DNA of 64,000 bases from an uncultured delta proteobacterium (GCA_963708295.1 CAVPSJ010000017.1:32001-96000), one strand, 5' to 3'. Positions 2,085 to 22,840 are shown, counted from the stretch's first letter. Translations and numbers: made by a program. The notes: generated by a model from the letters alone, not told the origin.

Positions 2085-2200
2085 GATTTACGATCAAAAT
2101 CTTCTATTTTGAAAGGTGGAAATTGAAAATTACTCTTTCAGGAAATACTAAATGAAATTTTCTTCTGGGTGATTTTGAAGTTTGGCGATTACCGAAGGAA
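2085..2200 (+). repeat. Inter-cassette element copy E1 (partial)
   Basis: GATTTACGATCAAAATCTTCTAT...CTCTTTCAGGAAATACTAAATGAAATTT shares blocks with the copies at 7885, 13612 and 15899. Confidence 0.75.
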
Positions 2201-2207
2201 ATAAACA

Positions 2208-2240
2208 AAAAAGGCAGGACCATCCCTAGTCCTGCCCTTT
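2208..2240 (-). terminator. Intrinsic terminator of the 2268-2537 gene
   Basis: GGCAGGAC/GTCCTGCC stem preceded by an A-run on + (U-run on -). Confidence 0.65.
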
Positions 2241-2267
2241 AGCAGCCGTCTCCCTTTTCATTCGTTA

Positions 2268-2537
2268 CTATTTTCTTATGCGCTCAAAGCAAATGACCCC
2301 ATTTGAACCCACTATGTGTTGTGTGGTGAATTCAGATATGTAGAACACTTGCCAACCATCATACCCTTGTAATATTCTCTTCAGTTCATTGGCGTCTCTC
2401 ATATCACAAGGTTCACATCGTGTTTGGACGTCACCACCTTCCAGTCTTGACTGGCGAAGACTCGAAGTGACATTAGCACCAGCACAGCCCATGACAGCAA
2501 CACATAATAACGAAACGGCAATTAGTAATCTCTTCAT
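2268..2537 (-). CDS. Small lipoprotein, hypothetical
   Basis: MKRLLIAVSLLCVAVMGC lipobox, AGGAG RBS, TTGACA -35 at 2634-2639. Confidence 0.75.
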   Translation of the reverse strand: MKRLLIAVSLLCVAVMGCAGANVTSSLRQSRLEGGDVQTRCEPCDMRDANELKRILQGYDGWQVFYISEFTTQHIVGSNGVICFERIRK

Positions 2538-2662
2538 TTTTTTCTCCTCCTTTTCTTAGGTTTTACGAATTTCTCCTCTCGTAACTGCTTGGTATGATGA
2601 CTGGCTTCATCTGATACACAAAATCCAACGATGTGTCAATAAGAAAATTAGGGGTCACATGC

Positions 2663-2862
2663 CATTATGTGGAAATCTGTTTCTAATGGTTTAAAGAGAT
2701 TGAATAGAGGAAGACAAATCGTGCTGTTGCCTCCAAGTTTATTTAAAACTCCCCGATTCTATCTTCATTTTATTGATAGTAAAATTTGGCGAGCACACCT
2801 ACTTATCTGCGAAGCGAGCCAACCTCGAACCTTGATGATTACGGAAAGAAACGAAGTATAAC
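2663..2862 (+). repeat. Inter-cassette element copy E2, ending in an attC-like half site
   Basis: TTGATAGTAAAATTTGGCGAGCACACCTAC (35 bp start to start) TTGATGATTACGG...GTATAAC, followed by GCCGGAGTTAATCTGC. Confidence 0.8.
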
Positions 2863-2931
2863 GCCGGAGTTAATCTGCCCGCCGCCACATTCAGTAGACG
2901 ACAAGATTTCTCCTTTCTATTCAGAAGGACT

Positions 2932-3378
2932 TTATAGGCCCACCGGCATGTCGTAAGGATGCGGACGGCCTTTGCCCGTCTCGACAAATTCCTTGAGGCT
3001 AAGCAGGAAAAGCACCCAGTGCATCGAGGACTGAGGGAACACTTTGGCATCCTCGCGCCATTTTGAGTGGCGAAGGTGAAGAAACGTTTTGTCGCCTTCG
3101 CGGAAGATTTTCCATTCAATTTCGGTGTTGACCCAATCAGGATCGCTCCGCTCAGTTGCGCGCCACCGCACGAGTTCATCAACCTTCAGAGTGGTTACAA
3201 CCATCTCCTTTAACAATTTCCCATAAAACCAGAATTCCAATTTCTTCCCGACGGCAGATTCCCCCCGCGTCTCGGTGGTCCACCAATGCGCAAGCTTTTT
3301 CACATCGGTTAACGCTTGGTAAAGCTCGCCTGGGGAAGCTTTGATAATAATTTCATGCCAGATTTCACGATATGCCAT
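2932..3378 (-). CDS. SRPBCC/AHSA1 (START-like) domain protein
   Basis: HEIIIKASPGELYQALT...LAHWW...W..FL.SLKEFVETGKGRP is typical of AHSA1. GGAGG RBS. Confidence 0.85.
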   Translation of the reverse strand: MAYREIWHEIIIKASPGELYQALTDVKKLAHWWTTETRGESAVGKKLEFWFYGKLLKEMVVTTLKVDELVRWRATERSDPDWVNTEIEWKIFREGDKTFLHLRHSKWREDAKVFPQSSMHWVLFLLSLKEFVETGKGRPHPYDMPVGL

Positions 3379-3544
3379 TGAAAACACCTCCTTTGGTTTA
3401 CCGCACTTTCCTTTTAAATTCCCGACCGCTTAATAAGAAAATGTCCATACTACTCCGAAAAATCAAGTATGACAATTCAATAGTATCCTATTGTTAAAAG
3501 CGCTCCCAACTCGATTTCAGATTTCTTCATGAAATTATACCATT

Positions 3545-3700
3545 GATTCACGCTTGAAAATGTTGTATCGAAGACTGAAAATTAGAAAACAAGACTTCAG
3601 GAAGTTATCTTCGGAAAAAGGGATGCGGATAACACCTACGAATGTTCGCTCCAAGGTATCTCGGATGGTTAGCGATTACGGATAGAAATCTTTATGAATA
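3545..3700 (+). repeat. Inter-cassette element copy E3 (complete A-B-C-D)
   Basis: TGAAAATGTTGTAT, TTCAGGAAG 41 bp later, ACACCTAC, TTAGCGATTACGG 35 bp later. Confidence 0.8.
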
Positions 3701-3764
3701 AAAGGCAGGGCATCATTCCTCACTTTATGCCTTTGGGTTATGACACCAATCTATTTCTTTCCTG

Positions 3765-5063
3765 CTATTGAGGAGGCTTGATCTCTCTTTTCAGTTCATC
3801 CAACCAGTACCCGTTCTTGTGGTCATACGTTCTTACCACGACCTTGTCAGGATAAAGATACAAGGAGTTAGTCCAAAGATTATGGTGGACTTTCCCACCA
3901 GAATGATTTTCCGCCATAATGCTTGCCCCCGTCATGTCAGGGTTTGGAATAACGACGACCCGTCGTTCGTACTGATTAATCTTATGATTAAAACTCTCAT
4001 GGGTCGGTGCAATATGGACGTGGCCTGATACCCAAAGAAATATCTGAGGATTGTCTTGAATAACGTTATGAATCTTCCTCCGTGGCTGGGCGATACCAGA
4101 CTTGTCGTCGTCAATGAATAAAGTATTACCAATTTTAAAATTACCCCGCAAGGTCCCCTTTAATGGTGCATGAAAGAAAATGATTGTAGGAACGTCTTTG
4201 TTCTTCTTTAGCTCTGACTGCCACCAATCAATCTGCTTTCCTGACATTTCACAAACATTGTCTGAGTATAGGTCGTCCACTGACAAAAAGATAAGATGGT
4301 AGGGGCCGACTCTTTTGCTGTAAAAAATCTCCTGCAATGAAAAGGTTTCTTTGAACCGTTCGAGTTTTCTTTTCCGGATGGAGTAATTGGCAGATACTCT
4401 TTTTCCTGGGGAATTATCTTCATAATGATAATCATGGTTTCCAACGATTGGGTAAAAGGGCTTTTTTAACTGGCTCAGAAATTTCTTGGCATAAGCGTAT
4501 TCTTCAATAGTTCCATGCTCCTCACATATATCTCCCGTAGCCACAGCCATATCTACGTCAGGCCAGGAATTGATGTCTTCGATTGCCTTTTCCTTCATTG
4601 TGGCGTTTTTTCCGGGAAGGTGAAGGTCAGAGAGAACAACAATCCGGTGATAGTTTTTCTCTTTCGATTCCGGTTGGCTCACCAATTTTATTTCGCCCGA
4701 AAGGCTGCTACTTTCGTTGCCATCTTTATCTTTCACCCAAATCTTCACAATCCGATAGGGTTTATGTTCCTGTGAAATCACTTTCCATCGGAGGGGGATC
4801 AGTCCCTTTTGTTTCTCTTTGATATCTGGCCGGATTGGATATTCGACAACATCTTTTTTCATCTCACCGTTTTGGGTTTCCCAGGTGTTCTCAATAAAAG
4901 CCTTGTCAACGTTCCCCTCAAATTCAACGGTGATAGTAAACCATTCTCCTATGACCACAGGATCTGTTAAGAACCGTAGATTGGATATCTTGGGGAGTTC
5001 AGCCTGAGCCTGCACAAAGGTACTTAATAGCAATATCAGAGCAAAAAAGATCGTCCTTTTCAT
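3765..5063 (-). CDS. Secreted calcineurin-like metallophosphoesterase with an N-terminal beta-rich domain
   Basis: Signal peptide MKRTIFF...AQA; motifs DLH, GD, GNHD, FHAP, SGHVH. Confidence 0.85.
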   Translation of the reverse strand: MKRTIFFALILLLSTFVQAQAELPKISNLRFLTDPVVIGEWFTITVEFEGNVDKAFIENTWETQNGEMKKDVVEYPIRPDIKEKQKGLIPLRWKVISQEHKPYRIVKIWVKDKDGNESSSLSGEIKLVSQPESKEKNYHRIVVLSDLHLPGKNATMKEKAIEDINSWPDVDMAVATGDICEEHGTIEEYAYAKKFLSQLKKPFYPIVGNHDYHYEDNSPGKRVSANYSIRKRKLERFKETFSLQEIFYSKRVGPYHLIFLSVDDLYSDNVCEMSGKQIDWWQSELKKNKDVPTIIFFHAPLKGTLRGNFKIGNTLFIDDDKSGIAQPRRKIHNVIQDNPQIFLWVSGHVHIAPTHESFNHKINQYERRVVVIPNPDMTGASIMAENHSGGKVHHNLWTNSLYLYPDKVVVRTYDHKNGYWLDELKREIKPPQ

Positions 5064-5226
5064 TTCATCCGACCTCCAGATTCGATTCAACATGGTTACT
5101 AAAGCGAGCATTGATTTGGTTTTTCGAGTGAGTCACTTTGGGTAATTTGAATATCAAAATATATTGGACTTGTCAAATATAGAATTCGGTTAGGTTTAAC
5201 CATGGAAGACGGCACTCGAAATCATT

Positions 5227-5410
5227 GAATACCGGTTGAAATGTTGCAATATACTGTGAAATTGGAAAATCACTCTTTCAGGAAGGAGGCCTTGAAAAGG
5301 GGATTACTTGTTTGACCTACTACATTGCAATGGGGAGACGATCTGGGAGTTGATGATTTCCGTTAGAAAGAAAGTATAACGGACTACTAAGCCGCGTTGG
5401 CTCGAGCGGC
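5227..5410 (+). repeat. Inter-cassette element copy E4 plus attC-like relic
   Basis: Full block order with 41-bp and 35-bp spacings. Ends GTATAAC-GGACTAC-TAAGCCGC...GCGGC. Confidence 0.8.
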
Positions 5411-5479
5411 GAGTTAGATTCATCTCTGCCGTATTTAGTTTGTATCGGTGTTTGGATCCTTTCCTCGGCGTGTTTTCCC

Positions 5480-6373
5480 CTATCGCTTCCCCGGGTCCTC
5501 AATGGCTTTTAAGAATTTGGACTGGAGCTCCGGATCATTCAGGTCCAAGATACCCCAGATCAATCTTCCCTTCCAGAAAAGGTCTACGTCTCCATGGTAG
5601 CGATCCTTCAACCGGTAGGCCCCCTCGGAGACTGTCTTCCCCTCGTTTCCGGTCTGCTTAAGGTATTTTTCCATCATCCCGCGGCAATCCCCCGCATCCT
5701 TGCCCTCGATCACAAAGATCTTGAATTTCTTGTCGCCGACTTCGTAGTCGGCCGTGTAACCGGAATGGAGATAGGAGTACCCCAGGAAGTCTTTGGAAAC
5801 GAACTTTTCCGTGTTCTTCTTCATGCCTTCCCGCGGAAACGAGGAGAGGATCTTGGGAAGGGCAGATTTCCCGCCCAGAATCCCCTCCATCTTCCGACCG
5901 AAGGCGAGCATGGTCCGCTCATCCTCCGCCCCGGTGTTGTATCCGTTGATCTTCACGTAGTAGGGGCCGACCACGAAATTCAGGACGTTCGGCTCCTGAT
6001 AGCCCTGAGCCCCGATGTCCAGAAACCTGGCGTTGGCCAGCCGCTCCTGGCTGTAGATCCCAAAGGCCTGGGTGGAATCGCCGTGTCGGTACACTTCGAC
6101 CGTCACCGCGGCTTTCCCTTCCCCTTTATACTCCGCCACGTTCAGATCCTGGAATTCATAGGTCAGGTAGAGGTCCGCCGCCCCATTGATGTATTCATAG
6201 AGCGTCCGGGGGGAGAAGACCTGGGGTTCTCCATCCTGCTTCCACCCGCCCACTTCCGGGAAGACGAGGGTCTTCTCATCCCCCATCGCTGCCCCCTCCC
6301 AAAGAGTGCCCCCCAACAACCAAAATAGGAAGAGGAGCAGGCGGAATGTGCTCTTCGATTTTAGCCCGTTCAT
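5480..6373 (-). CDS. Exported protein, DUF6599-like
   Basis: LYEYINGAADLYLTY and AFGIYSQER motifs, signal peptide; commonly found next to Tat aldo/keto reductases. Confidence 0.7.
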   Translation of the reverse strand: MNGLKSKSTFRLLLFLFWLLGGTLWEGAAMGDEKTLVFPEVGGWKQDGEPQVFSPRTLYEYINGAADLYLTYEFQDLNVAEYKGEGKAAVTVEVYRHGDSTQAFGIYSQERLANARFLDIGAQGYQEPNVLNFVVGPYYVKINGYNTGAEDERTMLAFGRKMEGILGGKSALPKILSSFPREGMKKNTEKFVSKDFLGYSYLHSGYTADYEVGDKKFKIFVIEGKDAGDCRGMMEKYLKQTGNEGKTVSEGAYRLKDRYHGDVDLFWKGRLIWGILDLNDPELQSKFLKAIEDPGKR

Positions 6374-6397
6374 ACTCTTTCCCTTTCTTCCTCCCGA

Positions 6398-7603: not shown

Positions 7604-7884
7604 CCCTGAACCCTCCATTCCCTTCCAGGCGATTACCCGGCCCTAAGGCCGGCTGGACCTCCACTTATAAAAAAAGAAAAACCCTTCCCCGTGTTAAAAA
7701 AGATGCCTTTACCGATCTTCGGATGTGCCCAAGGAAGCAAATCCGAAGATTGCTGACAGGGATTCAAAATGATCGCTTAAAGAATAATTTAACACTACCC
7801 CTCTCTTCTATCAAGGCATTATCTGGCCCCTTCAAGAGAAGAATGTCGCGCGGAGGAAAGTCTTAGGCCAGTATTCGAGATAAG

Positions 7885-7997
7885 GATTACCAAAATGAAA
7901 TCTTGTATCATGGTCGAAGTCTGTCAGCCAACGATTACAGGAAATACTAAATGGAATTTCCTTTTTGAGATATTTGGAGCAGGTTGATAGTAAAATC
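7885..7997 (+). repeat. Inter-cassette element copy E5, fused to the 3' end of the PIG-L-like gene
   Basis: GATTACCAAAATGAAATCTTGTAT, TACAGGAAATACTAAATGG 41 bp later, ...GAGCAGGTTGATAGTAAAAT. Confidence 0.8.
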
Positions 7998-8763
7998 CGG
8001 TCCAGAGGGTTGACGCCCAGTTCAGGAAAGTCGCCGTAAGCTCAGGGGTGGAAGCGACGGGTCGGTGCGCCTGATAGGCTTCTCGGACCGACCGGAAAGT
8101 CTTCGGATCGAAGTATCCCTCGATCGTGGGAAGCCCGAGCTCGCTTGCCACGTGCACCTGCCGTGATTGGCCGTCGGCGTCGCGTAGCACCCGGATACCA
8201 GGAGCCCAGACGTCGAAGCCCGTTTCCACTGCCCGCTTTCTCACCGCGATGTTGACTAGGCGATGCTGCACATGGCCGTATTCCCCCCAATTGTTGTGTG
8301 TGATCACACGTTTGATCGGTGGCGCAAAGTAGGGTCGAAGGTGAGGCTTGATGGTCGCCAAGTTAACAATTGGGGCACGCTTGCAGAAATCAGTGAAGAC
8401 CTCGGCCCAAATGTCGTTGTCGACGGACCCCCAGATAGGAGTCCATCGCACGCGATAATTAAGCTCTGCGGGGAGGCTCTGGACGAGATCCTGAAATACT
8501 GGCGCGGCGGGGTAAGCTGCAAGAAGAAACTTGGTTGCAACGGGCCAGAATGGTAACATCCAGAGCACGTCGTCGTCCTGGTGGGCAAAGACAACGAGGG
8601 TCTGGCCATCGCTGAAGATCGCGACTGACTCTTGACCTCCATCTGTTGCGCGGAGTGTGCTCTGAGCAGATTTAGGTTTATAGTCTTTATGAGTGGAAGC
8701 ACATCCAAATAAAAAAACTGAAATGGAAATAAGCAATATCATGAGAAGCAATTTTTTATACAT
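7924..8763 (-). CDS. Lipoprotein with a PIG-L/LmbE-like deacetylase domain, 3'-truncated
   Basis: Lipobox LFGC; AHQDDD and THNNWGEYGHVQH motifs; the last ~24 codons come from element E5. Confidence 0.7.
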   Translation of the reverse strand: MYKKLLLMILLISISVFLFGCASTHKDYKPKSAQSTLRATDGGQESVAIFSDGQTLVVFAHQDDDVLWMLPFWPVATKFLLAAYPAAPVFQDLVQSLPAELNYRVRWTPIWGSVDNDIWAEVFTDFCKRAPIVNLATIKPHLRPYFAPPIKRVITHNNWGEYGHVQHRLVNIAVRKRAVETGFDVWAPGIRVLRDADGQSRQVHVASELGLPTIEGYFDPKTFRSVREAYQAHRPVASTPELTATFLNWASTLWTGFYYQPAPNISKRKFHLVFPVIVG

Positions 8764-8880
8764 ATTAACCTCTTTTTCTATATTGAAGGTATGGTTTCGG
8801 ATCGAATAGGCTTTGAGTTATCAATAATTTCCTTCTTCAGTAATTGTATCAGTTAAATTCGCAGCCACAATCTTTATCAC

Positions 8881-10269
8881 TCAAAAACCGGCAACATCAC
8901 CGACACCACTACGAAGTGAGAACCATGCAAGCTGGAGAAACGTGTCGTCTGGCTTCCGTGTGTATTTCACTTCACCGATTTTCATTGAGCCCGATTTGTC
9001 CAACATATTCGTCCCGCGGATCTTCCAGGCGTTGACGATATAAGAGCTGATCCGGTTGGAGGCGCCCCTTTCGCTTCCCGTAAGGCTGTTGCGAACTGCG
9101 ACGGCCAGATCCTTATATATCACCCGCACCGTACCGCTTGCACGGCCTGCAGTCACATTGACATCAAATGTTGCATTTTGAAGGATACCGGATTTGATAC
9201 GCAAGCTTTCGCCAACTTCAAGGAAGGAATTGAGTCTGGTCAAGTCCATGAGATCCAGTGAGCCCGAGTATCGGAACGAGATGTCAGGGGATGCGACCGG
9301 AATAACCATGAGGATTTTCATCGTACTGGTCTTCATAAAGTTCCCCTGCGCGTGAACGACTGCAGTAGCAGCAGGGGCGGCATGATTGGTAATCCCTTCT
9401 GCCAACATCTGTATTGAATCAAACGTCACCTCGGCTGGCGCCGAGCCGATGATATACCTCTCTGCGTACTTCAACCGCCCATTCATGATGTTCAGGCTAT
9501 CGACCTGTGTAATTTTCTTTATCGATGAAAGAGCTTCGTTCGGCATCAGGGGTTTTGAAGCGTTCATGTTGTAGGGCGTGTCCATGTTGACCAAAATATC
9601 GAAGGACGCATCGTTGACTTTCACCGAATGAGCACGGTAGGTCTTCCCTTGCAGCAGTCCGAGACAGTCCGCACCCGTTACTCTGCTTTGAGGAAGAACG
9701 ATCCGGAATCGGGTCCTTCTGAACTTGCTACCTGCAAAGAATTTATCATCTTCGACCAAGGGATGAAGCTCCAATGCCTCAGCCAATATCTCTGAATCTG
9801 GTACCGATACACGCAGCCGTGCACACCGAAGTTCATACTGTGACTGCCGAAAGTTCAGCGCAATTTCTCGTGCCTCTGCAACGGAGCCGTTAAAGTCTTT
9901 AGGAGCAATATCTCCTCGCCCAAGAATCTGCAGCCAACCCATCCCGCTCACAGAGAACTTAGCAATACTGCACGAAAAGGTAGAATCAATCGACGTTAGT
10001 GCTATGGAGTCGCATCCGATGCGGTTCTTCCATATACTGTAATGCACGCCTGCAATCCGTATCGAGTATGCTGGATACGCTCTCGTGAATGCCTTTATGA
10101 TTTGGTTTTTGAGGTACCCGTTGATATATGTACCAGGAAAGAAAAGCAGTACCAGCGCACAAATGAGTACAACGACCCCGACAGCAAGGCCGGCATACGC
10201 CGTGACTTTTCGCAGTGACAGCTTACTCCGGTTGGCCGGTCCATGATTCATCGGCATCGGTATCATCAA
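8881..10269 (-). CDS. Membrane-anchored AsmA/DUF748-like protein
   Basis: Single N-terminal TM helix, beta-rich body, C-terminal YTRKPDDTFLQLAWFSL. Confidence 0.6.
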   Translation of the reverse strand: MMIPMPMNHGPANRSKLSLRKVTAYAGLAVGVVVLICALVLLFFPGTYINGYLKNQIIKAFTRAYPAYSIRIAGVHYSIWKNRIGCDSIALTSIDSTFSCSIAKFSVSGMGWLQILGRGDIAPKDFNGSVAEAREIALNFRQSQYELRCARLRVSVPDSEILAEALELHPLVEDDKFFAGSKFRRTRFRIVLPQSRVTGADCLGLLQGKTYRAHSVKVNDASFDILVNMDTPYNMNASKPLMPNEALSSIKKITQVDSLNIMNGRLKYAERYIIGSAPAEVTFDSIQMLAEGITNHAAPAATAVVHAQGNFMKTSTMKILMVIPVASPDISFRYSGSLDLMDLTRLNSFLEVGESLRIKSGILQNATFDVNVTAGRASGTVRVIYKDLAVAVRNSLTGSERGASNRISSYIVNAWKIRGTNMLDKSGSMKIGEVKYTRKPDDTFLQLAWFSLRSGVGDVAGF

Positions 10270-10380
10270 CCTTCTTTCTTTTTTTCGGTACCCACATAGA
10301 CCTTTTAATGGACGACCGTTGATAAGAACTCGCTTTTGGATGAATTAAGAATATAAAAGAGGGAGCTGTATGTCAATAAA

Positions 10381-10611
10381 GAACCGATGATTAAATTCAG
10401 CCGCGAAGCGGGTGCAGATAAGGTCTAAAACGGGCTTGGACTTGGCGGAGAGAATAAGGAAGCTACGAGAAACCCTTCCCTAAATTGCGATTTCAAAGGC
10501 TTGAGTCGAGAGCGCCCCAAGAACTCAAGAAGCCTTATCAAGTTTACTTAAATAACTTAAGAATGCCCCGTGAAGAGTGTAGGCCTGATATTCAAGCTTT
10601 TCTTCTTAGCA
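10381..10611 (+). repeat. ~230-bp direct repeat copy 1 (relic of a RAYT/IS200-like transposase 3' end)
   Basis: Aligns with 11211-11450 and encodes NSAAKRVQIRSKTGLDLAERIRKLRETLP*. Confidence 0.7.
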
Positions 10612-11091: not shown

Positions 11092-11160
11092 GGTTCAAAT
11101 TGAAATCATGTATGGATGGGTTCAGATCGAAAAACGATATTTTTTCAGAAAGTGCTCTTG
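11092..11160 (+). repeat. Inter-cassette element copy (A-B blocks only)
   Basis: TTGAAATCATGTAT, then TTCAGAAAG 44 bp later. Confidence 0.6.
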
Positions 11161-11778: not shown

Positions 11779-11821
11779 ACCTGAAAAATGATATTTATTG
11801 CATCTGGTGTATTTTACTTAC

Positions 11822-11983
11822 TTATGGCTTCTTAGGGTCTTTCTCTGTCTTGATTACTGTTTGTTCATAAGGTTCAGACATGAGCCGCTTCCAATCATCA
11901 AGTGGTCTGTCACCTTTGCCACTCTCAGGATGCCATTCCTTAATCCGTCTTGGCTTAGATTTACTGTTTGTCTTAATTGCCAT
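11822..11983 (-). CDS. Small basic hypothetical protein
   Basis: AGGAGG RBS before MAIKTNSKSKPRR. Confidence 0.45.
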   Translation of the reverse strand: MAIKTNSKSKPRRIKEWHPESGKGDRPLDDWKRLMSEPYEQTVIKTEKDPKKP

Positions 11984-12199
11984 TTGTCTTTGCCTCCTTT
12001 TGAGGCTTAACATACTTCGTCAGTTTGTACCAGACCCTATTAGGCCCTACCCCTTTATCTGAGACCTCAAACTCAGCGTGTATCTTTTCAATGGTCATTC
12101 CACTTCCTTTAAGCCAGCGAATGTGATGCATAAATTTGCATCAGGCCACTTCTCCCATATAAGATGCATTGCCTAGTCTTCTGTGGATTTTCTTCCGGT

Positions 12200-12320
12200 T
12201 ATTACAACTTGGAATCTTGTTTGGAATCGAGATTTCCAAAAATCAGGACTTCAGAAAGTAAGCGAGCGAGGACGATATTACCCAAATTCTGGGAAGCGGC
12301 AAGAGCTATGAATAAAAGGC
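12200..12320 (+). repeat. Inter-cassette element copy E8
   Basis: TTGGAATCTTGT, TTCAGAAAG 41 bp later; ends TATGAATAAAAGGC as copy E3 does. Confidence 0.7.
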
Positions 12321-12755: not shown

Positions 12756-13006
12756 CACTTTTTCCGATCAACTGCACTATATAATGACGGAATCGTACCA
12801 TTCTCCACCTTCATTGACTTGAATCGGGTGGGTCGGGTTTTTGGGTTTGAGCGGGTTAAAATTAGATTAGCTAGGCTCATTTTAAGGGGAGCAGATGAGA
12901 GGTTTCTCAATTAACAAAAACCTATGTCTTTATTATTGGCTGAGAAAGAGAGTTAGAAAGAGGCAAACCTATAGGGTGTCCAATACTCTCGAAAAGGTTA
13001 TCCTGA

Positions 13007-13145
13007 TTTTTGGAAGAGAATATATACAACTTTTTTGAGATTTGTCGAGCAGGTTGATAGTGAAATTTGGCGACTTCAGCTACAAACCGTGAGGATCAGT
13101 CTCCATTAAGGGTTGATGATTTCGGATTGAAAGACAGGGTACAGC
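13007..13145 (+). repeat. Inter-cassette element copy E9
   Basis: GAGCAGGTTGATAGTGAAATTTGGCGACTTCAGCTAC, then TTGATGATTTCGG 35 bp later. Confidence 0.8.
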
Positions 13146-13499: not shown

Positions 13500-13611
13500 G
13501 CCTCTTGTTCCTCCATATGTAAGCCCTGGTTACTCTCTTTGCTGTATTTACTTAGTTTACACATGCTAAGATTTATAACCAAATATGAATGGAAGCGTCA
13601 ACTAAACTATT

Positions 13612-14224
13612 GATTACCATTTGGAAGAGCGTATCGAAGGACAAAAACCACTCTTTCAGCTTACTAAATGAAATTTCATTTTCGAGATTCTTGGAGCAGG
13701 TTGATAGTAAAATTTGCTGACTTCACCTCCTACTCTTTGAGTATGTTATAAGGGTATAGGAATGGGTTTAGCTCATTCAAAAGGAAGAGGCAGGAGGACT
13801 TGAGTTTCACCTGGGTCATTGAATCCTCTTTGTAGTGTGTCCCTGCCTCCCCAAGCCATGATAGGTTGGTTGGGTCAAAGAACCCTTGTGATGATGGAGG
13901 TTTGGTGGGGAGGCATTTCCTGCCCTTCCGATCAGCAGGCTATCCAAGAGAGGCAACCGTCATGTGAGGCGTGTGATTTTCCTGATGACCCTTTGTGCGG
14001 TGAGAAGCCGTAATATCTTTAGGGAGTACTTCGTCAAGAGAAAAGAAGAAGGCCTGCCGCCCAAGAAGGCTATCCTTGCTACTGCTCACAAACTGCTGAG
14101 AGTTCTTTTTGCCAGGCTAACCCGTAAATCTTACTTTCGAACGGAGGTGGTTGAAGCATAGTTGACTACAAAGAGTGGGGATGATGCTGTTCAGAAGTTG
14201 AGGATCTCGGATGAAAGTGTGTAT
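13612..14224 (+). repeat. Inter-cassette element copy E10, interrupted by an IS110 relic
   Basis: A-B-C blocks at 13612-13733; the D block TTGAGGATCTCGGATGAAAGTGTGTAT resumes at 14198. Confidence 0.75.
13739..14176 (+). mobile_element. Internally deleted IS110-family element (non-coding left end plus transposase C-terminus)
   Basis: 13964-14161 encodes FREYFVKRKEEGLPPKKAILATAHKLLRVLFA, an IS110 C-terminal signature. TTGACT near the right end; GAGT at both ends. Confidence 0.75.
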
Positions 14225-15299: not shown

Positions 15300-15898
15300 T
15301 AGAGCAAAAAGTTTATTTCTCGTTTCCTTCTCCTTCTACTTCCTGCAATGCGCAGATAACTCATTCCTAATTGTATCAAGGTTTGGCCCGTTTAGGCTGG
15401 AGTGGCAAAGTCGGACAACATTGCTCCTAAATTTGGTAGTGTACTTGCACCGAGATGCGGATATTCCGCATCTGGCCGTGGATCAAAACGGCCCTCCACA
15501 TTCAAATCTTGTTAATATAATAAGGACTTGGTTTGGGATGGGTTGAATATACAAAAAAATGCAGCTCCAACGTCCTTGCACTTGTATTCCAGTCTATTCT
15601 TAGAGGGCAAGTACAACAATGGGTTCAATGCCGTATTTTGAGTTAAGAATGACTGCATTTTTGGGCTACAAATTATTGTAGGGGCAAGAAGTCGGATGTT
15701 ACCGTTCTATAGATATCCGCTTGACCATGTCGAGCGTAACCGCTCAATCTCGTTTTGGTTCTCCATGGCAATTCTCCATCCCTTGCTACCTCACACCAAT
15801 TCTAGGGAGAAGGACATGGGAAAACACAATACGTTATTGATCGATTTCCCGGCCCAAAATAGTGAATAGCTTGCCACCTGCACTTTACCCAAACTGAA

Positions 15899-16083
15899 GA
15901 TATCTATTTGAAATCTGCATTGGAAGGGAAGAGGGGCGTTTCATTGATTTCAGAAAGTACTAGATGAAATTTCCTTTTCGAGATTGTCGGAGCGGGGCGA
16001 TAGTAAGATTTGGCGAGTACACCTACCTATCTTCGATGTGAGCTAAGCTTCAACCTTGATGATTACGGGGAGAAAGATTGCAT
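15899..16083 (+). repeat. Inter-cassette element copy E11 (longest, about eight ~23-bp units)
   Basis: Units start at 15899, 15923, 15946, 15968, 15992, 16015, 16038 and 16061. Confidence 0.8.
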
Positions 16084-17771: not shown

Positions 17772-18122
17772 TCAATAAGGGAAACTGATGAGGGTCTCTG
17801 GATCCCTTTCTGGAAGGAGCCAGGTAAGCACTTAATGACTCAGGGTGGCTTTGGATTCTAGGGCCCGCCCTCGTGCAATGATTAGAACTCGCTTTTGATT
17901 GTGTTAAATATACGAAAAAACGGAATTTTATGTCAAGCGAAAAGGACCACAAGATATGCATAGAAAGAAAGTTTTGTCAGGTTTTGAAATTACTTGACCC
18001 TTCCAAATCAAGATAGGTCAAGATAGAGTTAAATCCTCCTCTTCTACTTTTTAGATTAAAAACATTAAAATCAACCATTTTGTCAATCCCAAAAATGAGA
18101 TTGTGGAGATTATTGTTTGGAG

Positions 18123-18300
18123 GATTGTCATTTGAAATCTTGCATGTGCGGATGGTTTTTCAGAATCTCTCTTTCAGGAAGGAGTCTTCGTTTTCCCAAA
18201 TCCCGCCGATCAAAAAAACTATGTTGAAGTTTCACCTACCTATCTTCAGTGAAAGGATGATCAGGGAGTTGATGATTACGGGATGAAGCAAAGTGAGTTT
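18123..18300 (+). repeat. Inter-cassette element copy E13 (complete)
   Basis: TTGAAATCTTGCAT, TTCAGGAAG 41 bp later, CACCTAC, TTGATGATTACGG 35 bp later. Confidence 0.8.
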
Positions 18301-18410
18301 ATAAATCTCATTTTGTGGAAGAACGAAAAAGGGATGCAGTCCAATAGGCATGAGAGCTGCACCCCTTCCTTTCAAACTTACAAATCAATTCCCGAAAGAC
18401 TCCAATCAAA

Positions 18411-20222
18411 CTAATCTGGATTTATGGTCAGAGGAATATCGGACGCTTCTCCTCCCCAGCCCATGCCATAGGTACTTCCATCGGAAGAGTGAATAATCCA
18501 CCAGCCGCCATTGCTACTCTGGTAAATGGCGACATCCGTCTTTCCATCACCATCGTAATCCCCGGGCACAGGGGTGAATCCAGATCCGCCCCATCCCACT
18601 CCATAAGCCCCTACTTGCCCCTGTGGTCCAGTACCCGAAGAGGGAGTGATCCACCAACCACCGTTCGTGGTATTGTAGATGGCGATGTCTGTTTTTCCAT
18701 CCCCATCATAATCGCCGGGAACAGGTTTGAATGCTGATCCACCCCAGCCTATTCCATAGGCTGGAATGCCAGAAGAGGGAATGATCCACCACGCACCTCC
18801 CGTGGTATCATAGATGGCAATGTCTGTTTTTCCATCCCCATCATAATCGCCAGGAACAGGTTTGAAAGCTGATCCACCCCAACCCACTCCATAGGCCCCC
18901 ACTTGTCCTTGTGGCCCTACCCCTGAAGAGGGGATAATCCACCAGGCACCCGTTGTGGAATTGTAAATGGCAATATCGGTCTTTCCATCCCCATCATAAT
19001 CTCCAGGGACAGGTTTGAAAGCAGATCCACCCCAGCCTATTCCATAGGATGGAATACCAGAGGAGGGGATGATCCACCACGCACCGCCCGTGGTATCGTA
19101 AATTGCAATATCTGTTTTTCTATCTCCATCGTAATCTCCGGGAACGGGTTTGAATCCAGGTCCACCCCAGCCATAGCCATAGGCAGGAGAGCCTGAAGAA
19201 AGAGTGACCCACCAAACACCCGTGCTGGTACGGTAAAAGGCAATATCGGTCTTTAAATCACTGTCGAAGTCACAACTAATAGGCCTGCAACCACCAGGCG
19301 GCTTAAGATCGAAGACATACTGGAGGACCTCATGGGCCGCCTGTTCCGACCACATGACGGCGTTGGCTATCCTTTTGTCCAAAAGGACACCTTCATCGCC
19401 CTGTTCAATAATCCAATCCAAGCTAGGGAGGGGGGCTGGCCAGGCAAGTGCGGTGCTGTGCCGGTATGAAAGGAGGTCACTCTCCAAACTGATGGCGAAC
19501 GCGTCATCAGATGTGAAGCACCGACCAAAAATTCGAAAATCACTGAAACTCCAAGCCTTCGGTACGTAGTTAAAGTCGGTATTTTCCCAAACAAACTCAA
19601 GCTCCAAAGGCCAATCAACCTCCTGGTAACTGCCCCACAAAAGCGGTCCAAGGTGAGGAGGGTTGAGGAAGTCCTCTGCGAAATGCACGGCGTAGCCCGC
19701 ATGGACCATGGCTCGACTTCTGTTGTTATTGATTAAATCTTGCTTTGCCTTATCGGCCCAGTATTTTATCGGATTCCACACACTCAAATCTGCGAATTCG
19801 TGATTCATTAGGTTATCGAAGTCGTTTTCCCAGTCGTCTTTGAATGTGAAGCAAGGCTCATCGGTGCAACTATACCCAAATATGCCCAATTCGACTATGT
19901 CCCGACCTATCAATGCCTCGACCTGCAGGGCACCCTCCCACCACCAAGTGTTCTTAAGGCCAGGACCCGCCCCCCATATACCATCAGGTGTTGACGCTCC
20001 ATCCCTGAGGAGCTGCCGCTCTTCAGCAGAGAGATAGCCTGCCGGAAGCAAGTTGTTAGAATCCAACCAGAGGATCGCATTTTCCGCCATCATACCGTGT
20101 GCGCCTCCAGGGGGCACATCCGTCAAACCAAAGAGCGGCCCGGCCGACCACCCCTCTGCCCGCTGTTGAGTGCCCAATAAGCCAATCGCCACGCAAAGGA
20201 CTACCATTGAGGCGAGCCTCAC
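18411..20222 (-). CDS. Secreted Zn-dependent phospholipase C/S1-P1-like domain fused to FG-GAP/VCBS repeats
   Basis: Signal peptide ending AEG|W; H..., PD, HEF and GYAVHFAED..NPPH motifs; six GDYDGDGKTDIAIY-type repeats. Confidence 0.75.
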   Translation of the reverse strand: MRLASMVVLCVAIGLLGTQQRAEGWSAGPLFGLTDVPPGGAHGMMAENAILWLDSNNLLPAGYLSAEERQLLRDGASTPDGIWGAGPGLKNTWWWEGALQVEALIGRDIVELGIFGYSCTDEPCFTFKDDWENDFDNLMNHEFADLSVWNPIKYWADKAKQDLINNNRSRAMVHAGYAVHFAEDFLNPPHLGPLLWGSYQEVDWPLELEFVWENTDFNYVPKAWSFSDFRIFGRCFTSDDAFAISLESDLLSYRHSTALAWPAPLPSLDWIIEQGDEGVLLDKRIANAVMWSEQAAHEVLQYVFDLKPPGGCRPISCDFDSDLKTDIAFYRTSTGVWWVTLSSGSPAYGYGWGGPGFKPVPGDYDGDRKTDIAIYDTTGGAWWIIPSSGIPSYGIGWGGSAFKPVPGDYDGDGKTDIAIYNSTTGAWWIIPSSGVGPQGQVGAYGVGWGGSAFKPVPGDYDGDGKTDIAIYDTTGGAWWIIPSSGIPAYGIGWGGSAFKPVPGDYDGDGKTDIAIYNTTNGGWWITPSSGTGPQGQVGAYGVGWGGSGFTPVPGDYDGDGKTDVAIYQSSNGGWWIIHSSDGSTYGMGWGGEASDIPLTINPD

Positions 20223-20566
20223 CAGCCTGAATAGTCCGTGAGTTCGTAAAGTCTTCGTTTGCCTTCTCCTTCCGCGCCGTCACCGGCACTCACTTGTTTG
20301 TTGTTGCTGTTCAGCGTCCAGTTCAAGGACAGCCAGTTGTCATACAACAGGTCCTCAATCAGAGTCCAGAAGGTTTTCCTCGACAATTCGAATAATCGCT
20401 TCACGGATTGAAATGAACAATTATTATACTGCATTGTGTAATTTGTAAGAATCCTACCCATTCAGGTGCTTTTTGTCAATGAGAAATCAGGAAAGTCATG
20501 GGCTTCTCAGTATAGGGGCTGCCAATATAATCGGAAGGTTATCACAATTTGGGATTTTCTGCGAGC

Positions 20567-20722
20567 GAATAATTTCTTAAGAATGAAATGTTATATTGCG
20601 TGTCTATAATTCCTAAGGTCTATTATTCTGAGCATTCATCATTGAGGATTTCCGCCGAAAGAACGAATAACGGGTTCCTTAGCTGCAACGGTTAGCTGTT
20701 GGCGGAAAGATCAAGGTTAGGA
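20567..20722 (+). repeat. Inter-cassette element copy E14 joined to a degenerate attC
   Basis: Homologous to 22641-22744. Ends GAATAAC-GGGTTCC-TTAGCTGC; the R'' box TCCTAAC lies on the minus strand at 20716-20722. Confidence 0.65.
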
Positions 20723-20735
20723 ATTCCCGCCTTAT

Positions 20736-21648
20736 TCAAAAATTGCTCCTATTCGGTCGTCCGGCAAGGTATTTCGACAGACGCTCATAAGACAGAAGGT
20801 AAAATGCCGCCAACCCCCGGTATGGCTTAAAGAGTGATAATTTTCTCATCGTTCCTTGTGGCGACAAACGCTGTCCGCGACCGAGATAGCGACCGACAAT
20901 ACTTCTAATACCGAGATCTTCTGCGGGGACCCGGTCCGGACGGCTTAGGCCTCGAACAAGAAAATACTCGGCCGACCAGGGCCCAAGACCCCGTACCTGG
21001 AGGAGAACAGATCGAACATCTTCGTCGGACATCGCCTCTAACTGGTCAAGATCAAGCAGTCCATTAGCCACCTTATGAGCCACTCCCTTCACATACTCTG
21101 CTTTGCGTTGAGAAAGTCCGCATGTCATAAGATCTGCCGCTGAACTCTCACTCAATCGTCTCGGGGTTGGAAAAGCCCAAAGGCCATTCACAGGGTCCCC
21201 AAACCGTTCGATCATCCGCGTTCTAATACGATAAGCAGCTGCCAAAGAGATCTGTTGCTCGGTGATGGCAATGACAAGCATTTCAAATAAAGATGCAGGT
21301 CGAATCGGCTTGAGGCCATGCAATTCTTGGGTTATCCGCCCTAAGACTGAGTGGGATGCCGTGAGCTGGTAGAATGGCAAAAGATCCAGCTCAGCGGAGA
21401 TGATCCATCTCGCTATCCGGTTGACCTCTGATGCACTGTCCGGCTAGATCGGTCCGTATCTCAAACGTAGGAGGATCACGACGGACTTGGCTCAATTCCA
21501 ACGTTGTCGGGATATCTCGGATTCTAACCGCGGAGCGAAGAACAGAGAAATCCTGGAATGGATCAGGCGAAAAACTCCTCGCAACACGCAAAGACAATTC
21601 AAAATCATGCGGACCAACTGACGAGATAGAAAACGCAGTCATGTTCAT
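20736..21648 (-). CDS. DNA-3-methyladenine glycosylase II (AlkA-like), frameshift near 21430
   Basis: Two ORFs join; EQQISLAAA, AFPTP, HhH motif GLGPWSAEY, DLGI. Confidence 0.8.
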
Positions 21649-21678
21649 ACCGATGGCCTATGTTCTTCATTCGCAAAC

Positions 21679-21733
21679 TCCTAACGCAAAAATCAACCAC
21701 GAGTCTAACGAGTCGGCTGCACTGCCTTCGGCA
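21679..21733 (-). other. Degenerate integron attC site
   Basis: Minus strand GCCGAA-GGCAGTGCAGCCGACTCG..TCGTGGTTGATTTTTGC-GTTAGGA. Its R' GTTAGGA is complementary to the TCCTAAC after the alkA-like gene. Confidence 0.7.
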
Positions 21734-21790
21734 ATCAATTGGCCTTTATTTCCTGTCGCTTGTCCGTTGTGACCCCATCCTCTCTGATAT

Positions 21791-22430
21791 TTACAGCCAG
21801 CTTACTGATTTTGCCAATGTAGGATATTCGACGGAAGGAGGTTGATAGTTATCTGCCGGATATCCCAGCGCGCATCCATCAAGCGCATATTCCCCAGCGG
21901 GAATATTCGAGAAGTCTGCAAAAATCAGGGTCACTATCCATTTGCATCGTTGCACTGACAAGTTGAAGACCAATACCGAGTGATGTTGCTTTCAGCCACA
22001 TATTCTGAAGGCAGTAGCTAAGCGATTGTGCGGCAACTGGAGGCATTCCTTTTCTTTCTCCGACAACAACAAAATATGGTGCATTACCGACACCGGGTAC
22101 GCCTTGTTGTCCGATTCGTTTTAGATTCTGCACAAAAGGAACAGGTCCCACCTTCTTTTCAAGTTCATCGGCCAGCTTTGCCATTCGGTTTTTGAGAATA
22201 TCCGCTGCGGCTTCCATCGCTGATGACGAGTTTCGAATCACGAATACCTTTCTAAAGTCAGGTTTCCCGGCAACCGCAAGTGCTCCAAATGGAGCTAACA
22301 GGCCCGCTTGGATTATTGCCTCAATAGCCTCTTGGCTTGGCGGGATAGAGCTAAATGCTCTTACTGAGCGCCGTGCTCTTATGATTACATCAAGGGCTGC
22401 ACTGTGTTCGGGGGTGATGTTTTCAAACAT
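21791..22430 (-). CDS. Nitroreductase family protein, frameshift near 21910
   Basis: IRARRSVRAF, LAP, QNMWLKATSLGIG; C-terminus ALGYPA in the second frame. Confidence 0.85.
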
Positions 22431-22597
22431 CCTGTTCTCCTTTCATTTGTTGTCTTTTCTCTTATGCCTAACAATCATCATGCTACAAGGAATAATTTCT
22501 TGAATTTTATCCCCAAGAGCACTTTCTGTCAATCAATTCGGGCCTCTTAGCATTCTACCGATAAAGCGAATCATGATGGACTTCTTATCGTATTTTT

Positions 22598-22840
22598 ACT
22601 TTCAGGATATTTCAGCGATTATAAACCCTTTATTCTATTTGAATAATTTGTTAAAAACGAAATGTTATATGACGTGAATATCGTTCCCAAGGGTTATGAT
22701 TATCGATTATTCACGCTCAACACTTTCCAGTTGAAACATTGTATAAACAAGGTCGCTTCAAGGTTGAGGACTTTAGGAATAAGTAAATAATCTATTTAGA
22801 ATTGTATGTAGGATGAGATTTTCATTTGACCAAAGTAATA
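22598..22840 (+). repeat. Inter-cassette element copy E15 at the right edge of the accessory region
   Basis: Units ACTTTCAGGA, CGAAATGTTATAT, ACTTTCCAGTTGAAACATTGTAT and TTGAGGACTTTAGGA. Confidence 0.6.

Follow-up and report, generated by a model that had tools for sequence, protein, structure and literature searches.

Organization of the locus

The window, that is, the whole stretch of 64,000 nucleotides analysed here, comes from a genome (G000) whose host is described as an uncultured sulfate-reducer-type bacterium. Its left part carries an array of genes with mutually unrelated functions that are separated by members of a single family of intergenic elements, and conserved genes (pdxA, thiolase) take over from about position 23470, to the right of the last family member at 22724-22789. 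A sensitive nhmmer search restricted to the window detected 12 copies (E<=0.012) spanning 2082-22789, with starts at 2082, 2672, 3543, 5225, 7882, 11096, 12201, 13000, 13609, 15896, 18121, and 22724, all 12 on the plus strand, and no match at E<1 from 23000 to 64000. These results bear out the two principal claims of the preceding sequence-only reading, namely that repeated co-oriented elements occupy 2085-22840 and that none occur in the housekeeping 23-64 kb. Eleven of its 13 main positions were recovered; at 20567 there is only a faint D-like match (E 4.7), and the copy placed at 22598 is actually the module at 22724-22789. Neither of its two weak traces (8790 and 17350) reappeared. The literal block-A pattern from that reading finds only two sites at <=2 mismatches; the blocks are degenerate, and hence the family is visible as a profile rather than as a string.

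A complete junction comprises about 190 bases and is a mosaic of two end modules and an exchangeable linker. The C-D module, positioned behind the terminator of one cargo gene, consists of the heptamer CACCTAC (block C) followed, at 35-38 bp, by a core of roughly 27 bp of the form TTGATGATTACSG-TTGAAAG (D core). The A-B module, positioned upstream of the next cargo gene, consists of the same kind of core in direct orientation (A core) followed, at a fixed 41 bp, by TTTCAGGAAG (block B). The cores at the two ends are direct rather than inverted repeats. The linker M between B and C is 28, 62, about 190, or about 370 nt long, and the three linker types are conserved between species. What had been described as one element is made up of two end modules that are independent of each other and a linker joining them. 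The fixed spacing described at the outset is exact, A to B being 41 bp at all six listed pairs and C to D 35 bp at all six. The copies and the characterized cargo segments of the window are the following (profile positions and E-values in brackets).

2082..2210, plus strand: junction copy with A-B at 2082-2169, a truncated linker and a D core at 2171-2210, without block C (2-87, E 3e-10, and 151-190)
2672..2861, plus strand: full junction copy with degenerate A-B, CACCTAC at 2796-2802 and D core from 2832, C to D 35 bp (5-191, E 2e-19)
3543..3690, plus strand: full junction copy with short linker (about 28 nt), A to B 41 bp, C to D 35 bp (3-183, E 1e-18)
3691..5224, minus strand: cargo, secreted metallophosphoesterase gene (ORF 3765-5111, Pfam PF00149) with terminator
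5225..5379, plus strand: full junction copy with short linker (3-191, E 4e-21)
7882..8000, plus strand: A-B with long linker (2-119, E 7e-25); the 3' end of ORF 7924-8763 stands in place of the C-D module
8818..10393, minus strand: cargo, 462-aa ORF of no known family with a promoter-like module, right end within the A-type core GATGATTA
11096..11153, plus strand: weak A-B module (10-64, E 0.012, window-only search)
11800..12211, minus strand: cargo, small gene (about 55-63 aa) with promoter region
12201..12259, plus strand: A-B module alone, A to B 41 bp (6-64, E 5e-5)
13000..13138, plus strand: linker and C-D, without A-B (47-187, E 9e-27)
13609..13740, plus strand: A-B and long linker, without D (2-142, E 2e-26)
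15896..16081, plus strand: best full copy, with A, B, a 62-nt linker, C and D (2-187, E 1.5e-38)
18121..18294, plus strand: full junction copy (3-187, E 5e-32)
22724..22789, plus strand: A-B module, right-hand end of the array (7-72, E 0.0013)

The D core of the first copy is found in metagenome contigs preceded by a full C-D, with loose ends at 2187.

Distribution and orientation of the junction family

A profile built from nine window copies and iterated over the whole genome, separately from the window-only search, yielded 98 matches. A distance of 41 bp separates A and B in 22 of 24 modules; for C and D, 25 of 34 show the modal spacing. With respect to composition, forms with A-B only number 27, those with C-D only 36, and full junctions 22; there are also C-core-B units of about 105 bp that contain a single core and no cargo. 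Among 48 C-D modules, CACCTAC is exact in 26 and has one mismatch in 13, each position being kept in at least 36 of these 39. The best copy of the window (15896-16081) has a counterpart in 13 of the 14 other genomes of the genus.

The array itself is real but was drawn too small: it extends leftward as far as the contig start, and all 24 of its matches, over 50 kb (G000:C17:582-50294), are on the plus strand. The remaining matches (74 of 98) lie elsewhere, singly or in small clusters, so that the elements are not private to the single platform that had been implied. Matches are present on all large contigs, 94 of the 98 are intergenic, and 41 are unclustered. A spread through ordinary intergenic DNA had been named in advance as a point against gene capture and is indeed observed. 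Synteny with four relatives begins at about 23470, and the array is absent at the syntenic place in all four, none of which has an element at that position.

By crude longest-ORF calls, the D-side gene turns its 3' end to the element in 79 of the 98 matches and the A-side gene its 5' end in 71 of the 98; element orientation and gene direction are strongly coupled (55 vs 3). The minus-strand order previously proposed, of gene stop, element, TTGACA promoter and next gene, holds for the stop, the element and the gene; a TTGACA-type promoter was found by the promoter scan between element and gene at only some junctions, as in the cargo at 8818..10393 (TTGACA-17-TATTCT at 10376-10348). The coupling would also fit a role in transcription. 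In the corresponding explanation, the genes of a regulon would have the element in common as an upstream regulatory or promoter module, with the cores as operators controlling the downstream gene on the minus strand. The meeting of the A side with gene starts, the TTGACA module adjoining some A cores, and the TTGTAG-17-TACTAT that the long linker together with C presents on the minus strand (as read from the profile consensus) all agree with this proposal. Nevertheless, we consider it very improbable, given that the promoter scan places sites inconsistently within elements, that the distance from A core to start codon varies from 14 to >260 nt, that C-D-only modules follow genes and have no downstream gene that they could control, and that the cargo functions are unrelated.

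Comparison with known repeat and integron families

The best copy folds worse than shuffled sequences on both strands (z +1.13 and +1.81), in agreement with the long non-palindromic sites that the sequence-only reading had envisaged. The Rfam comparison suggested there (Rfam 15) gave no match at gathering score within the window and, at E<=1 over positions 1-23500, two chance-level matches (E 0.5-0.7), both outside the elements, which accordingly match no Rfam family. In the plasmid collection the junction elements have zero matches. No significant fold of the kind expected of BIME/REP palindromic units was detected, the repeat finder covering direct repeats. The terminal inverted repeats expected of MITEs or mobile insertion cassettes are absent: the unit ends, CACCTAC... 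and ...TTTCAGGAAG, are not inverted copies of each other.

The integron analogy calls for separate consideration. A co-oriented array with one site per junction is present (24 of 24 matches in the 50 kb, 12 of 12 in the window). Across the whole genome, the integron integrase model TIGR02249 reached at best 86.4 bits against a cut-off of 265, with no hit above it. With no IntI above cut-off and no attC-type fold, the identity of the system as an integron is rejected, and the analogy does not survive as an identity.

A two-recombinase element that joins its flanks at block C

A multicopy element of 2.1 kb, bounded by perfect 12-bp terminal inverted repeats and carrying two Xer-like tyrosine recombinase genes, is present in three species: three full copies in G000, on contigs other than that of the array, four in G010 (98.2-99.95% alike) and three in G003 (99.8% alike), the recombinase element of G003 showing only 52% amino acid identity to that of G000. 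The ends read CTATACGTAACA...TGTTACGTATAG in all copies. CACCTAC adjoins the left side of the element in 10 of 10 junctions and its right side in eight of the nine that are readable, the ninth reading CACTAC; a C-D module lies to the right in eight of nine. Block C is therefore the 7-bp direct repeat that flanks the element, and CACCTAC is the site where the element joins its flanks, nearly always beside a C-D module. If joined, the element ends would yield a 12-7-12 site of the lox/FRT/dif type. The arms around CACCTAC in the junctions are weak, with inverted repeats of <=5 bp in some copies and flank positions that are far from invariant.

Alignments to the XerA and XerD structures show that both recombinases keep the R...HxxR...H...Y signature; they are 28% identical to each other. 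Recombinase 1 scores 192 bits with the XerA model (cut-off 220) and 191 with XerC (cut-off 335), and recombinase 2 scores 153 and 138 bits, respectively. Both fall below the NCBIfam equivalog cut-offs, so that identity with XerC, XerD, or XerA is rejected; their TIGR02249 scores are 111 and 78 bits (cut-off 265). By these scores, the two are predicted to be Xer-like proteins and not Xer. Neither has a recognised arm-binding domain, and their nearest plasmid-borne relatives are at most 32% identical. An identity with RIT elements was likewise rejected, the repeated unit having two recombinase genes and the third ORF beside the C5 copy encoding an alpha/beta hydrolase. Modules bounded by pdif or Xer sites were also rejected, the 12-7-12 site occurring only at the joined ends of the recombinase element. 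A full-text literature search did not find the two-recombinase element described.

No recombinase is encoded within the window, as had been stated before. The search of the left end proposed at that time brings up a truncated copy of the element within the array (C17:30886-31556), 444-1114 nt left of the first base of the window. This copy begins with the CACCTAC of one junction, and its fusion point lies at block B of the following junction. Five of the 14 other genomes of the genus (G003, G004, G010, G011, and G007) match the recombinase query at E<=1e-30, the G007 match being distant (32%); nine give no match at this threshold, in fragmented assemblies of the kind in which multicopy elements are often lost. 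The recombinase element could simply be parasitic, with C-D modules as its insertion target; the centre of the core is targeted in a similar way by an IS3-family element.

Exchange of cargo and positions of breakpoints

Cassettes are 90-98% identical between species, compared with 71-83% for adjacent core genes. The metallophosphoesterase segment (window 3673-5079) is 91% identical to a segment of G009:C363 that likewise lies between C-D and A-B modules; the modules flanking the two copies are only about 50% identical, and thus the cassettes do not move as C-to-C units, which is what a simple recombinase model would predict. A second match to G009 (92%) starts at 7997, about profile position 116. 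The cargo at 8818..10393 is 93% identical to G004:C54, and in each genome the homology reaches no further than the first bases of the A core. The small cargo at 11800..12211, whose product has no Pfam match, is multicopy and 92-98% identical across species; it begins immediately after a D core in C15 and ends within the A core at 12201. Exchange, both among species and among loci, affects the cargo that lies between one D core and the A core that follows. Two conserved genes delimit an orthologous site at which three species retain C-D and A-B, with 3.8 kb, two cassettes, or 17 kb of unrelated DNA between these modules; in a fourth species the site is without an element. That the sites bound swappable gene modules is supported by this cross-species identity and by the unrelated cargo at the orthologous site. 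Terminators, and often promoter-like sites, are part of the cargo itself.

Homology breakpoints cluster at four places, the A core, the end of B, C, and the D core, and continue to do so after removal of the recombinase element's own ends. A 3.4-kb duplicate shared by C8 and C5 (95.6%) spans precisely the interval from CACCTAC to the end of TTTCAGGAAGAA, with no target duplication at its ends, and an 83% duplicate at C15:100811, which reproduces the copy at 18121..18294 from block C onward into the FG-GAP gene, begins at block C. Same-strand pairs in the order C-D...A-B number nine, against two in reverse order, and solitary pairs enclose 0.4-3.9 kb. These observations are what would be expected if the C-D and A-B modules were the left and right ends of non-autonomous transposon-like cassettes (mobile insertion cassettes), moved whole in trans by an enzyme other than the Xer-like pair, with M as leftover target DNA. 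We regard this alternative as quite unlikely: inverted repeats are lacking at the ends, a search for a target duplication was negative, the ends persist at the orthologous site while the cargo differs, conservation between species extends to all three linker types, and no candidate transposase is linked to the units.

A different explanation is that these are mosaic intergenic repeats of the BIME/REP kind, kept by the host as binding sites for a nucleoid or regulatory protein or to insulate transcription units from one another, that serve passively as IS targets while cargo moves by ordinary horizontal transfer into intergenic DNA that tolerates it. Enterobacterial BIMEs are targeted by IS1397 and ISKpn1, and here two unrelated mobile elements target the modules. 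The dispersal of largely intergenic matches over all large contigs, the mosaic forms, the tie between element orientation and gene direction, and the retention of C-D and A-B at the orthologous site point the same way, as does the species-group-specific character of a mosaic of short ordered motifs, into one of which the IS3-family element inserts precisely. Unlike BIME/REP repeats, however, the modules lack palindromic units and fold, bound variable cargo, and form a 50-kb array of 24 co-oriented copies that is absent at the syntenic place in relatives; moreover, the cargo is far more alike between species than core genes are, there are four fixed positions within the element at which breakpoints occur, and the invariant heptamer is the overlap sequence of the recombinases. 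We therefore hold host-kept repeats to be an unlikely explanation.

Interpretation

Taken together, the repeats are most likely junctions between mobile gene modules, each junction being formed from the two conserved end modules of its neighbours. As for the nature of these junctions, the reading that we favor, at a probability of roughly 0.55, is that they serve a cassette system other than an integron as its multipart recombination sites. The lack of an enzyme linked to the A and D cores counts against this reading. Where species have near-identical cargo in common, the similarity stops at the A and D cores or at or near the gene, not at block C; movement of the cassettes by the recombinase pair is therefore putative. 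No excision product, circle, or within-species pair of empty and filled sites was seen, metagenome contigs over the region being a few hundred bases long. Of the earlier gene-capture interpretation, the module boundaries stand and a tyrosine-recombinase element matching C has been added; the link from enzyme to cassette is putative.

Integrons, which include sedentary chromosomal integrons and CALINs, combine IntI and attI with arrays of attC cassettes, and attC sites are imperfect palindromes that fold as single strands. The present system resembles them in its long co-oriented array of unrelated, mostly single- or few-gene modules with one conserved site between them, in the involvement of a tyrosine recombinase, and in having cassettes common to several species in an array that relatives lack. 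In contrast to integrons, its junctions of about 190 bp do not fold and are built of direct repeats, IntI is absent, the cargo has its own terminators and often promoter-like sites, the recombinase pair resides on its own 2.1-kb element with inverted-repeat ends, and sites are also dispersed in the chromosome. The pdif sites of Acinetobacter plasmids are 28-bp 11-6-11 sites in alternating orientation that are acted upon by host XerC/XerD and flank small gene modules. Both systems have small gene modules bounded by sites of a Xer-type pair and found in differing contexts, but the junctions described here are 190 bp long, co-oriented and chromosomal, the recombinases are element-borne, and the only 12-7-12 site is that of the element's joined ends.

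Several known elements move as units of adjacent tyrosine recombinase genes. [quoted passage not shown] As far as these accounts go, the element shares with them the joint movement of adjacent recombinase genes and several identical copies per genome, and differs in that its 2.1 kb hold two Xer-like genes, its 12-bp ends are perfectly inverted, and a 7-bp repeat flanks it.

A-B-M-C-D in one piece resembles a double-stranded multipart attachment site. In attP of the lambda type, about 200 bp long, a short crossover region is flanked on either side by repeated protein-binding sites whose distances from it are fixed. A junction has a comparable length and fixed distances, with a putative layout of core and arms, but the recombinases are of a simple Xer type lacking a recognised arm-binding domain, and the arm role of the A and D cores, as two putative arm-type protein-binding sites at fixed distances, is suggested by this analogy. 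In such a mechanism, the crossover site would lie at C, perhaps with a second at B; cargo would be excised and integrated at junctions by the recombinase pair or by a different, core-reading enzyme; C-core-B units would serve as landing pads; and arrays like the 50-kb one would grow by serial integration. The function would be integron-like, without IntI, attC hairpins or single-strand folding. The modules swap and block C is the joining site of the element; thus, the region behaves in an integron-like manner without being an integron.

Tentatively, and with considerably less confidence than the general reading, we suggest that this might be a second, independent integron-like invention, in which the C-core-B pads take up circular cassettes through a heteromeric Xer-like pair by double-stranded recombination. 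If so, it would use non-hairpin multipart sites, with putative arm sites 41 and 35-38 bp from two crossover points, and would be a system that shuttles genes between species of wetland Thermodesulfobacteriota.

Extent of the repeat family

The genome under study (G000; its contigs carry C-numbers, individual loci L-numbers) is a 4.95-Mb assembly in 20 contigs with approximately 50% G+C, 91% complete and 5.6% contaminated; the window corresponds to C17:32001-96000, and the gene positions used here are crude longest-ORF calls made without a gene finder. A sensitive profile search of the window alone detected 12 matches at E<=0.012, all on the plus strand and within 2082-22789, so that the repeat family described by the sequence-only reading is real; the absence of elements from the housekeeping region at 23-64 kb also stands, with 0 matches at E<1 there in the same search. 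Of 13 main positions originally named, 11 were recovered, the one at 20567 was not, and the one at 22598 is actually an A-B module at 22724-22789; two weaker traces likewise went unconfirmed in the window-only search. The fixed geometry holds for the pairs from which it had been deduced (A to B, 41 bp in 6/6; C to D, 35 bp in 6/6) and extends genome-wide, with 41 bp between A and B in 22/24 modules and the modal C to D distance in 25/34. The literal string proposed for block A proved too strict, finding only 2 sites at <=2 mismatches.

Approximately 190 nt are alignable across nine window copies, and a profile iterated on the whole genome yielded 98 matches at E<=0.01. Twenty-four of these lie in C17:582-50294, a stretch that opens with the contig's first bases and reaches window position 18294, and all are on the plus strand. 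A 16-base pattern run over a collection of genome contigs returned nearly all chance hits; after re-scoring, true elements were present at 2 loci (L042 and L106) among the matches listed.

Anatomy and orientation of the junction

The consensus starts TGATGATTACCGTTTGAAATCTTGTAT and finishes TTGATGATTACCGATTGAAAGAAAGTAT, indicating that blocks A and D are two direct copies of a single core of about 27 bp. Between B and C lies an exchangeable stretch, M, found in forms of 28 nt, 62 nt, ~190 nt (conserved in three species) and ~370 nt. All three copies of the ~370-nt form, which has no obvious gene and is 87-90% alike among copies, begin directly after block B; both C17 copies reach block C and replace the linker there, and the right end of the C8 copy is not resolved.

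Types of the 98 genome-wide matches
C-D only: 36
A-B only: 27
Full junction: 22
Linker plus C-D: 7
A-B plus linker: 6

Copies of the ~370-nt form of M
C17:16479-16853
C17:401268-400912, minus strand
C8:111167-111449

Candidate cargo-free units (n=3)
C19:60718-60616
C17:301707-301802
G010 (another species of the genus), L147:9076-9172, weaker

The cargo-free units, which are rare, contain a single core in the order C, 28 nt, core, 25 nt, B; they come from a search with two half-profiles that replaced a fuzzy regular expression whose output was mostly noise. Separately, a 181-nt direct repeat (window 10381-10561 and 11211-11391, 74% alike) opens with a core split by about 21 extra bases (GATGATT, the insert, then ACGGATGAAG).

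Nearly all matches are intergenic (94/98), both neighboring genes run opposite to the element in 55/98, and both run in the same direction in only 3. The order on the gene strand is gene, terminator, D, C, M, B, A, next gene, much as had been read from the sequence. This strong tie of element orientation to gene direction, together with the dispersed copies, is the main support for the rivals of the cassette-site reading, among them the possibility that the junction is a regulatory module, which we consider very improbable: a scan for sigma-70 promoters and terminators found promoter-like sites in excess of shuffled sequences, yet placed inconsistently in the elements. Two further readings, a sigma-54 promoter for the long linker and a box for IHF or Fur within the cores, were dropped by eye on account of wrong spacing or weak match. 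As a separate observation, a promoter-like module (TTGACA, 17-18 nt, TATTCT or TATATT, then a conserved leader) recurs on the minus strand at window 10320-10376, 15518-15556 and 17879-17936; the one at 10376 abuts an A-type core and is conserved together with its cargo in the related species G004.

Relation to known elements

No Rfam family matched the window at gathering score and none matched inside the elements at E<=1, and on either strand the best copy is less well folded than its shuffles (z +1.1 and +1.8); together these searches and folds rule out a structured RNA or an attC-like hairpin. An integron integrase is absent from the genome (best score 86 bits against a cut-off of 265), and integron identity is rejected given that integrase scores in the genome and those of the element-borne recombinases described below fall under the cut-off. 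The plasmid collection contained no match to the element.

With the best copy (window 15889-16095) as query, matches were found in 13/14 other genomes of the genus, in 3/10 from the family's other genera and in 0/16 outside it. The matched modules are 75-94% identical, above most coding DNA, and the copies in relatives are again co-oriented in runs (7/7 on one strand in L162, 5/5 in L172). The full-text literature searched contains no description of such junctions, nor of an element with two Xer-like recombinases and these ends. [quoted passage not shown]

Homology breakpoints

The endpoints of element-touching matches that are >=85% identical cluster at four places, namely the A core, the end of B, C and the D core, and the clustering persists after removal of the ends of the recombinase element itself. 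A 3.4-kb duplicate (C8 versus C5, 95.6%) starts exactly at CACCTAC and finishes exactly after TTTCAGGAAGAA, and a second duplicate, at 83%, that covers window 18229 into the FG-GAP gene has its start at C. Cargo common to species terminates at the cores: a match in G004 stops at GATGATTA of the A core, and a 412-nt cargo in C15 has its first base directly after the D core. A match in the species G009 extends from the D core to a point a little upstream of the ribosome-binding site, with the modules on both sides only ~50% identical.

The cores are also occupied by an IS3-family element with two overlapping frames, the inverted repeat TGACCTTCCCC and a 3-bp duplication. Every copy examined, at least 6 in the species G003 and one in G000, sits in the center of an A/D core, for which the element seems to be specific. 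That the junctions are BIME-like repeats kept by the host, and merely targets for such elements, is an explanation that we regard as unlikely.

Copies of the IS3-family element
G000:C15:291243 onward
L172:7222-8478
At least 5 more copies in G003

Another short dispersed sequence (L025:5233-5393, corresponding to G000:C15:291232-291392), of which G003 has 17 or more copies at 87-88%, coincides at least partly with the end of the IS3-family element.

An element with two Xer-like recombinases

Integrase matches below threshold led to a repeated 2.1-kb unit on C8, C5 and C12 that encodes two tyrosine recombinases, both combining a SAM-like N-terminal domain with a catalytic one. Although Xer-like, both fall short of all curated Xer and IntI cut-offs; the two share 28% identity, and alignments to the solved XerA and XerD structures show that the R...HxxR...H...Y signature is kept in both. 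An apparent recombinase trio at C5 was discarded, the third ORF being a hydrolase.

Copies of the 2.1-kb unit in the genus
G000: 3 copies
G010: 4 copies, 98.2-99.95% alike, 88% nucleotide identity to those of G000
G003: 3 copies, 99.8% alike, only 52% amino acid identity to those of G000
G011 and G004: a single copy each

The unit terminates in a perfect 12-bp inverted repeat (CTATACGTAACA ... TGTTACGTATAG) in 10/10 copies read. Directly outside its left end stands CACCTAC (10/10), and the same heptamer follows the right end exactly in 8/9 readable junctions, the ninth having CACTAC; joined in a circle, the ends would make a 12-7-12 site of the lox/FRT/dif type. CACCTAC is block C as defined from the window, exact in 26/48 and off by one in 13/48 C-D modules of G000, with variable flanks. 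A C-D module lies to the right of the unit in 8/9 readable copies and A-B-M to the left in only 3/10, indicating that the target is the C-D module and not the whole junction. At C15:113646 (minus strand) a solitary sequence resembling the right end, AATTACGTATAG, directly precedes CACCTAC and may be a footprint or solo end.

The suggestion that a recombinase be sought beyond the left end of the window was rewarded: a truncated copy (671-679 nt, 86-89% identical to full copies) lies inside the array at C17:30886-31556, 444-1114 nt left of the first base of the window. It starts at the CACCTAC belonging to one junction, and its fusion point is block B in the following one. There is a further remnant at C17:393554-393895, next to a full junction. 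Metagenomic data show the recombinase to be very common, with at least 120 clusters at 85-100% identity; the best 120 listed are ~306-340 aa long, come mostly from contigs of 1-3 kb and are named only 'XerD' or 'tyrosine-type recombinase'. Close homologues bear the source label '[Thermodesulfobacteriota bacterium]', which points to G000 as an uncultured organism of Thermodesulfobacteriota type. Given these lengths, the 379-aa ORF called in G000 probably starts too early.

Beside the unit, in 2/3 G000 copies (C8 and C5), are genes for a winged-helix protein of 108 aa and a secreted beta-sandwich protein of 112 aa (L021:3283-3609 and 2689-3027 in the C8 copy), and the 95.6% identity continues through this cassette up to block B. 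Of the two proteins, the winged-helix one is a candidate for binding to the cores.

Mobility of the cargo

Window 1-20000 was searched against 14 other species of the genus, revealing segments of near identity.

Near-identical segments in other species
Window 8818-10393: 93% in G004
Window 3673-5079: 91% in G009
Window 7997-8667: 90-92% in G009
Window 17329-17812: 95-97% in G011, G003 and G012
Window 11604-12117: 92-98% in at least six species

Housekeeping genes that adjoin the array have 71-83% identity to these genomes; for conserved genes flanking other sites the figure is 77-83%. In the relatives, the matching segments lie in other contexts, often again beside repeat modules. For the DUF4404 cassette (window 17300-17800 against 4 species), the alignment boundaries fall close to the gene and are uninformative.

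Several cargo genes merit separate mention. A small gene for a basic protein of ~55-63 aa, with its upstream region, occurs at window 11800-12211, C15:290831-291242 and C17:3591-3894 (96-97% alike); it belongs to no Pfam family, and its 92-98% identity to copies in six or more other species greatly exceeds that of core genes. A Gly/Tyr-rich protein of 112 aa, encoded by 24-nt repeats (window 12417-12755, plus strand), among the few plus-strand genes of the array, has matches at 76-86% in several related species. A TPR protein (14235-15299, six 102-bp repeats) and an FG-GAP repeat protein (18411-20222) have many paralogues elsewhere in G000 (C4, C8, C11, C15 and C19).

In G010, G003, G008 and G011 the array is absent from the neighborhood of pdxA and thiolase; ~111 kb from these genomes contained 1 element match, and none just upstream of pdxA. 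To the left of pdxA, G000 and its relatives all differ from one another, so that no clean empty site is definable for the whole array. When 'isolated' elements together with their flanks served as DNA queries, the neighbors proved to be scattered modules themselves, precluding a simple presence/absence test. The clearest case of swapped cargo is a C13 site between two conserved genes, where the three cargoes share no similarity and the chromosomal flank past block B is alike in G010 and G003.

Organization of the C13 site
G000: C-D, 3.8 kb, A-B
G010: C-D, cargo, full junction, cargo, A-B
G003: C-D, 17 kb, A-B
G011: 1.2-kb gap without any module

At least 20 metagenome runs contain part of window 2001-12000, none of those listed more than 30% of its sampled words. 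Contigs from 4 runs compared with window 1-20000, a few hundred bases each, show many loose ends at core starts (2187 and 5349) and some joints between repeated modules; they are too short to show excision, and gaps in their coverage are not evidence of absence. Cargo of this kind could also consist of transposon-like cassettes moved by another enzyme, which we regard as quite unlikely.

A proposed cassette system with multipart sites

We propose, with a probability of roughly 55%, that the junctions are recombination sites of a cassette system. Multipart recombination sites would best fit the facts: the crossover heptamer, demonstrated for the two-recombinase element, would lie at C; B would be a second recurrent breakpoint; and the two core copies, at fixed distances, would mark the boundaries of the cargo. 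Cargo that ends at the cores would require a crossover there, by the recombinase pair or by another enzyme that reads the cores. Within this cassette-system reading, the bolder form, in which the Xer-like pair itself is the cassette recombinase, is tentative and rather doubtful; the pair may move itself alone.

Integrons are the textbook case of gene capture one cassette at a time, relying on one enzyme family and folded single-stranded sites. If the system is as it appears, the outcome of an integron would be reached from different parts, as long co-oriented arrays of exchangeable modules that are common to species with only 71-83% identity in their core genes. A mobile element with two recombinases and a simple 12-7-12 site would be a further gain, and the recombinase and its site might prove to be a new pair for engineering. 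For the study of gene flow among anaerobic wetland bacteria, the system would supply a concrete enzyme and site that can be tested together.
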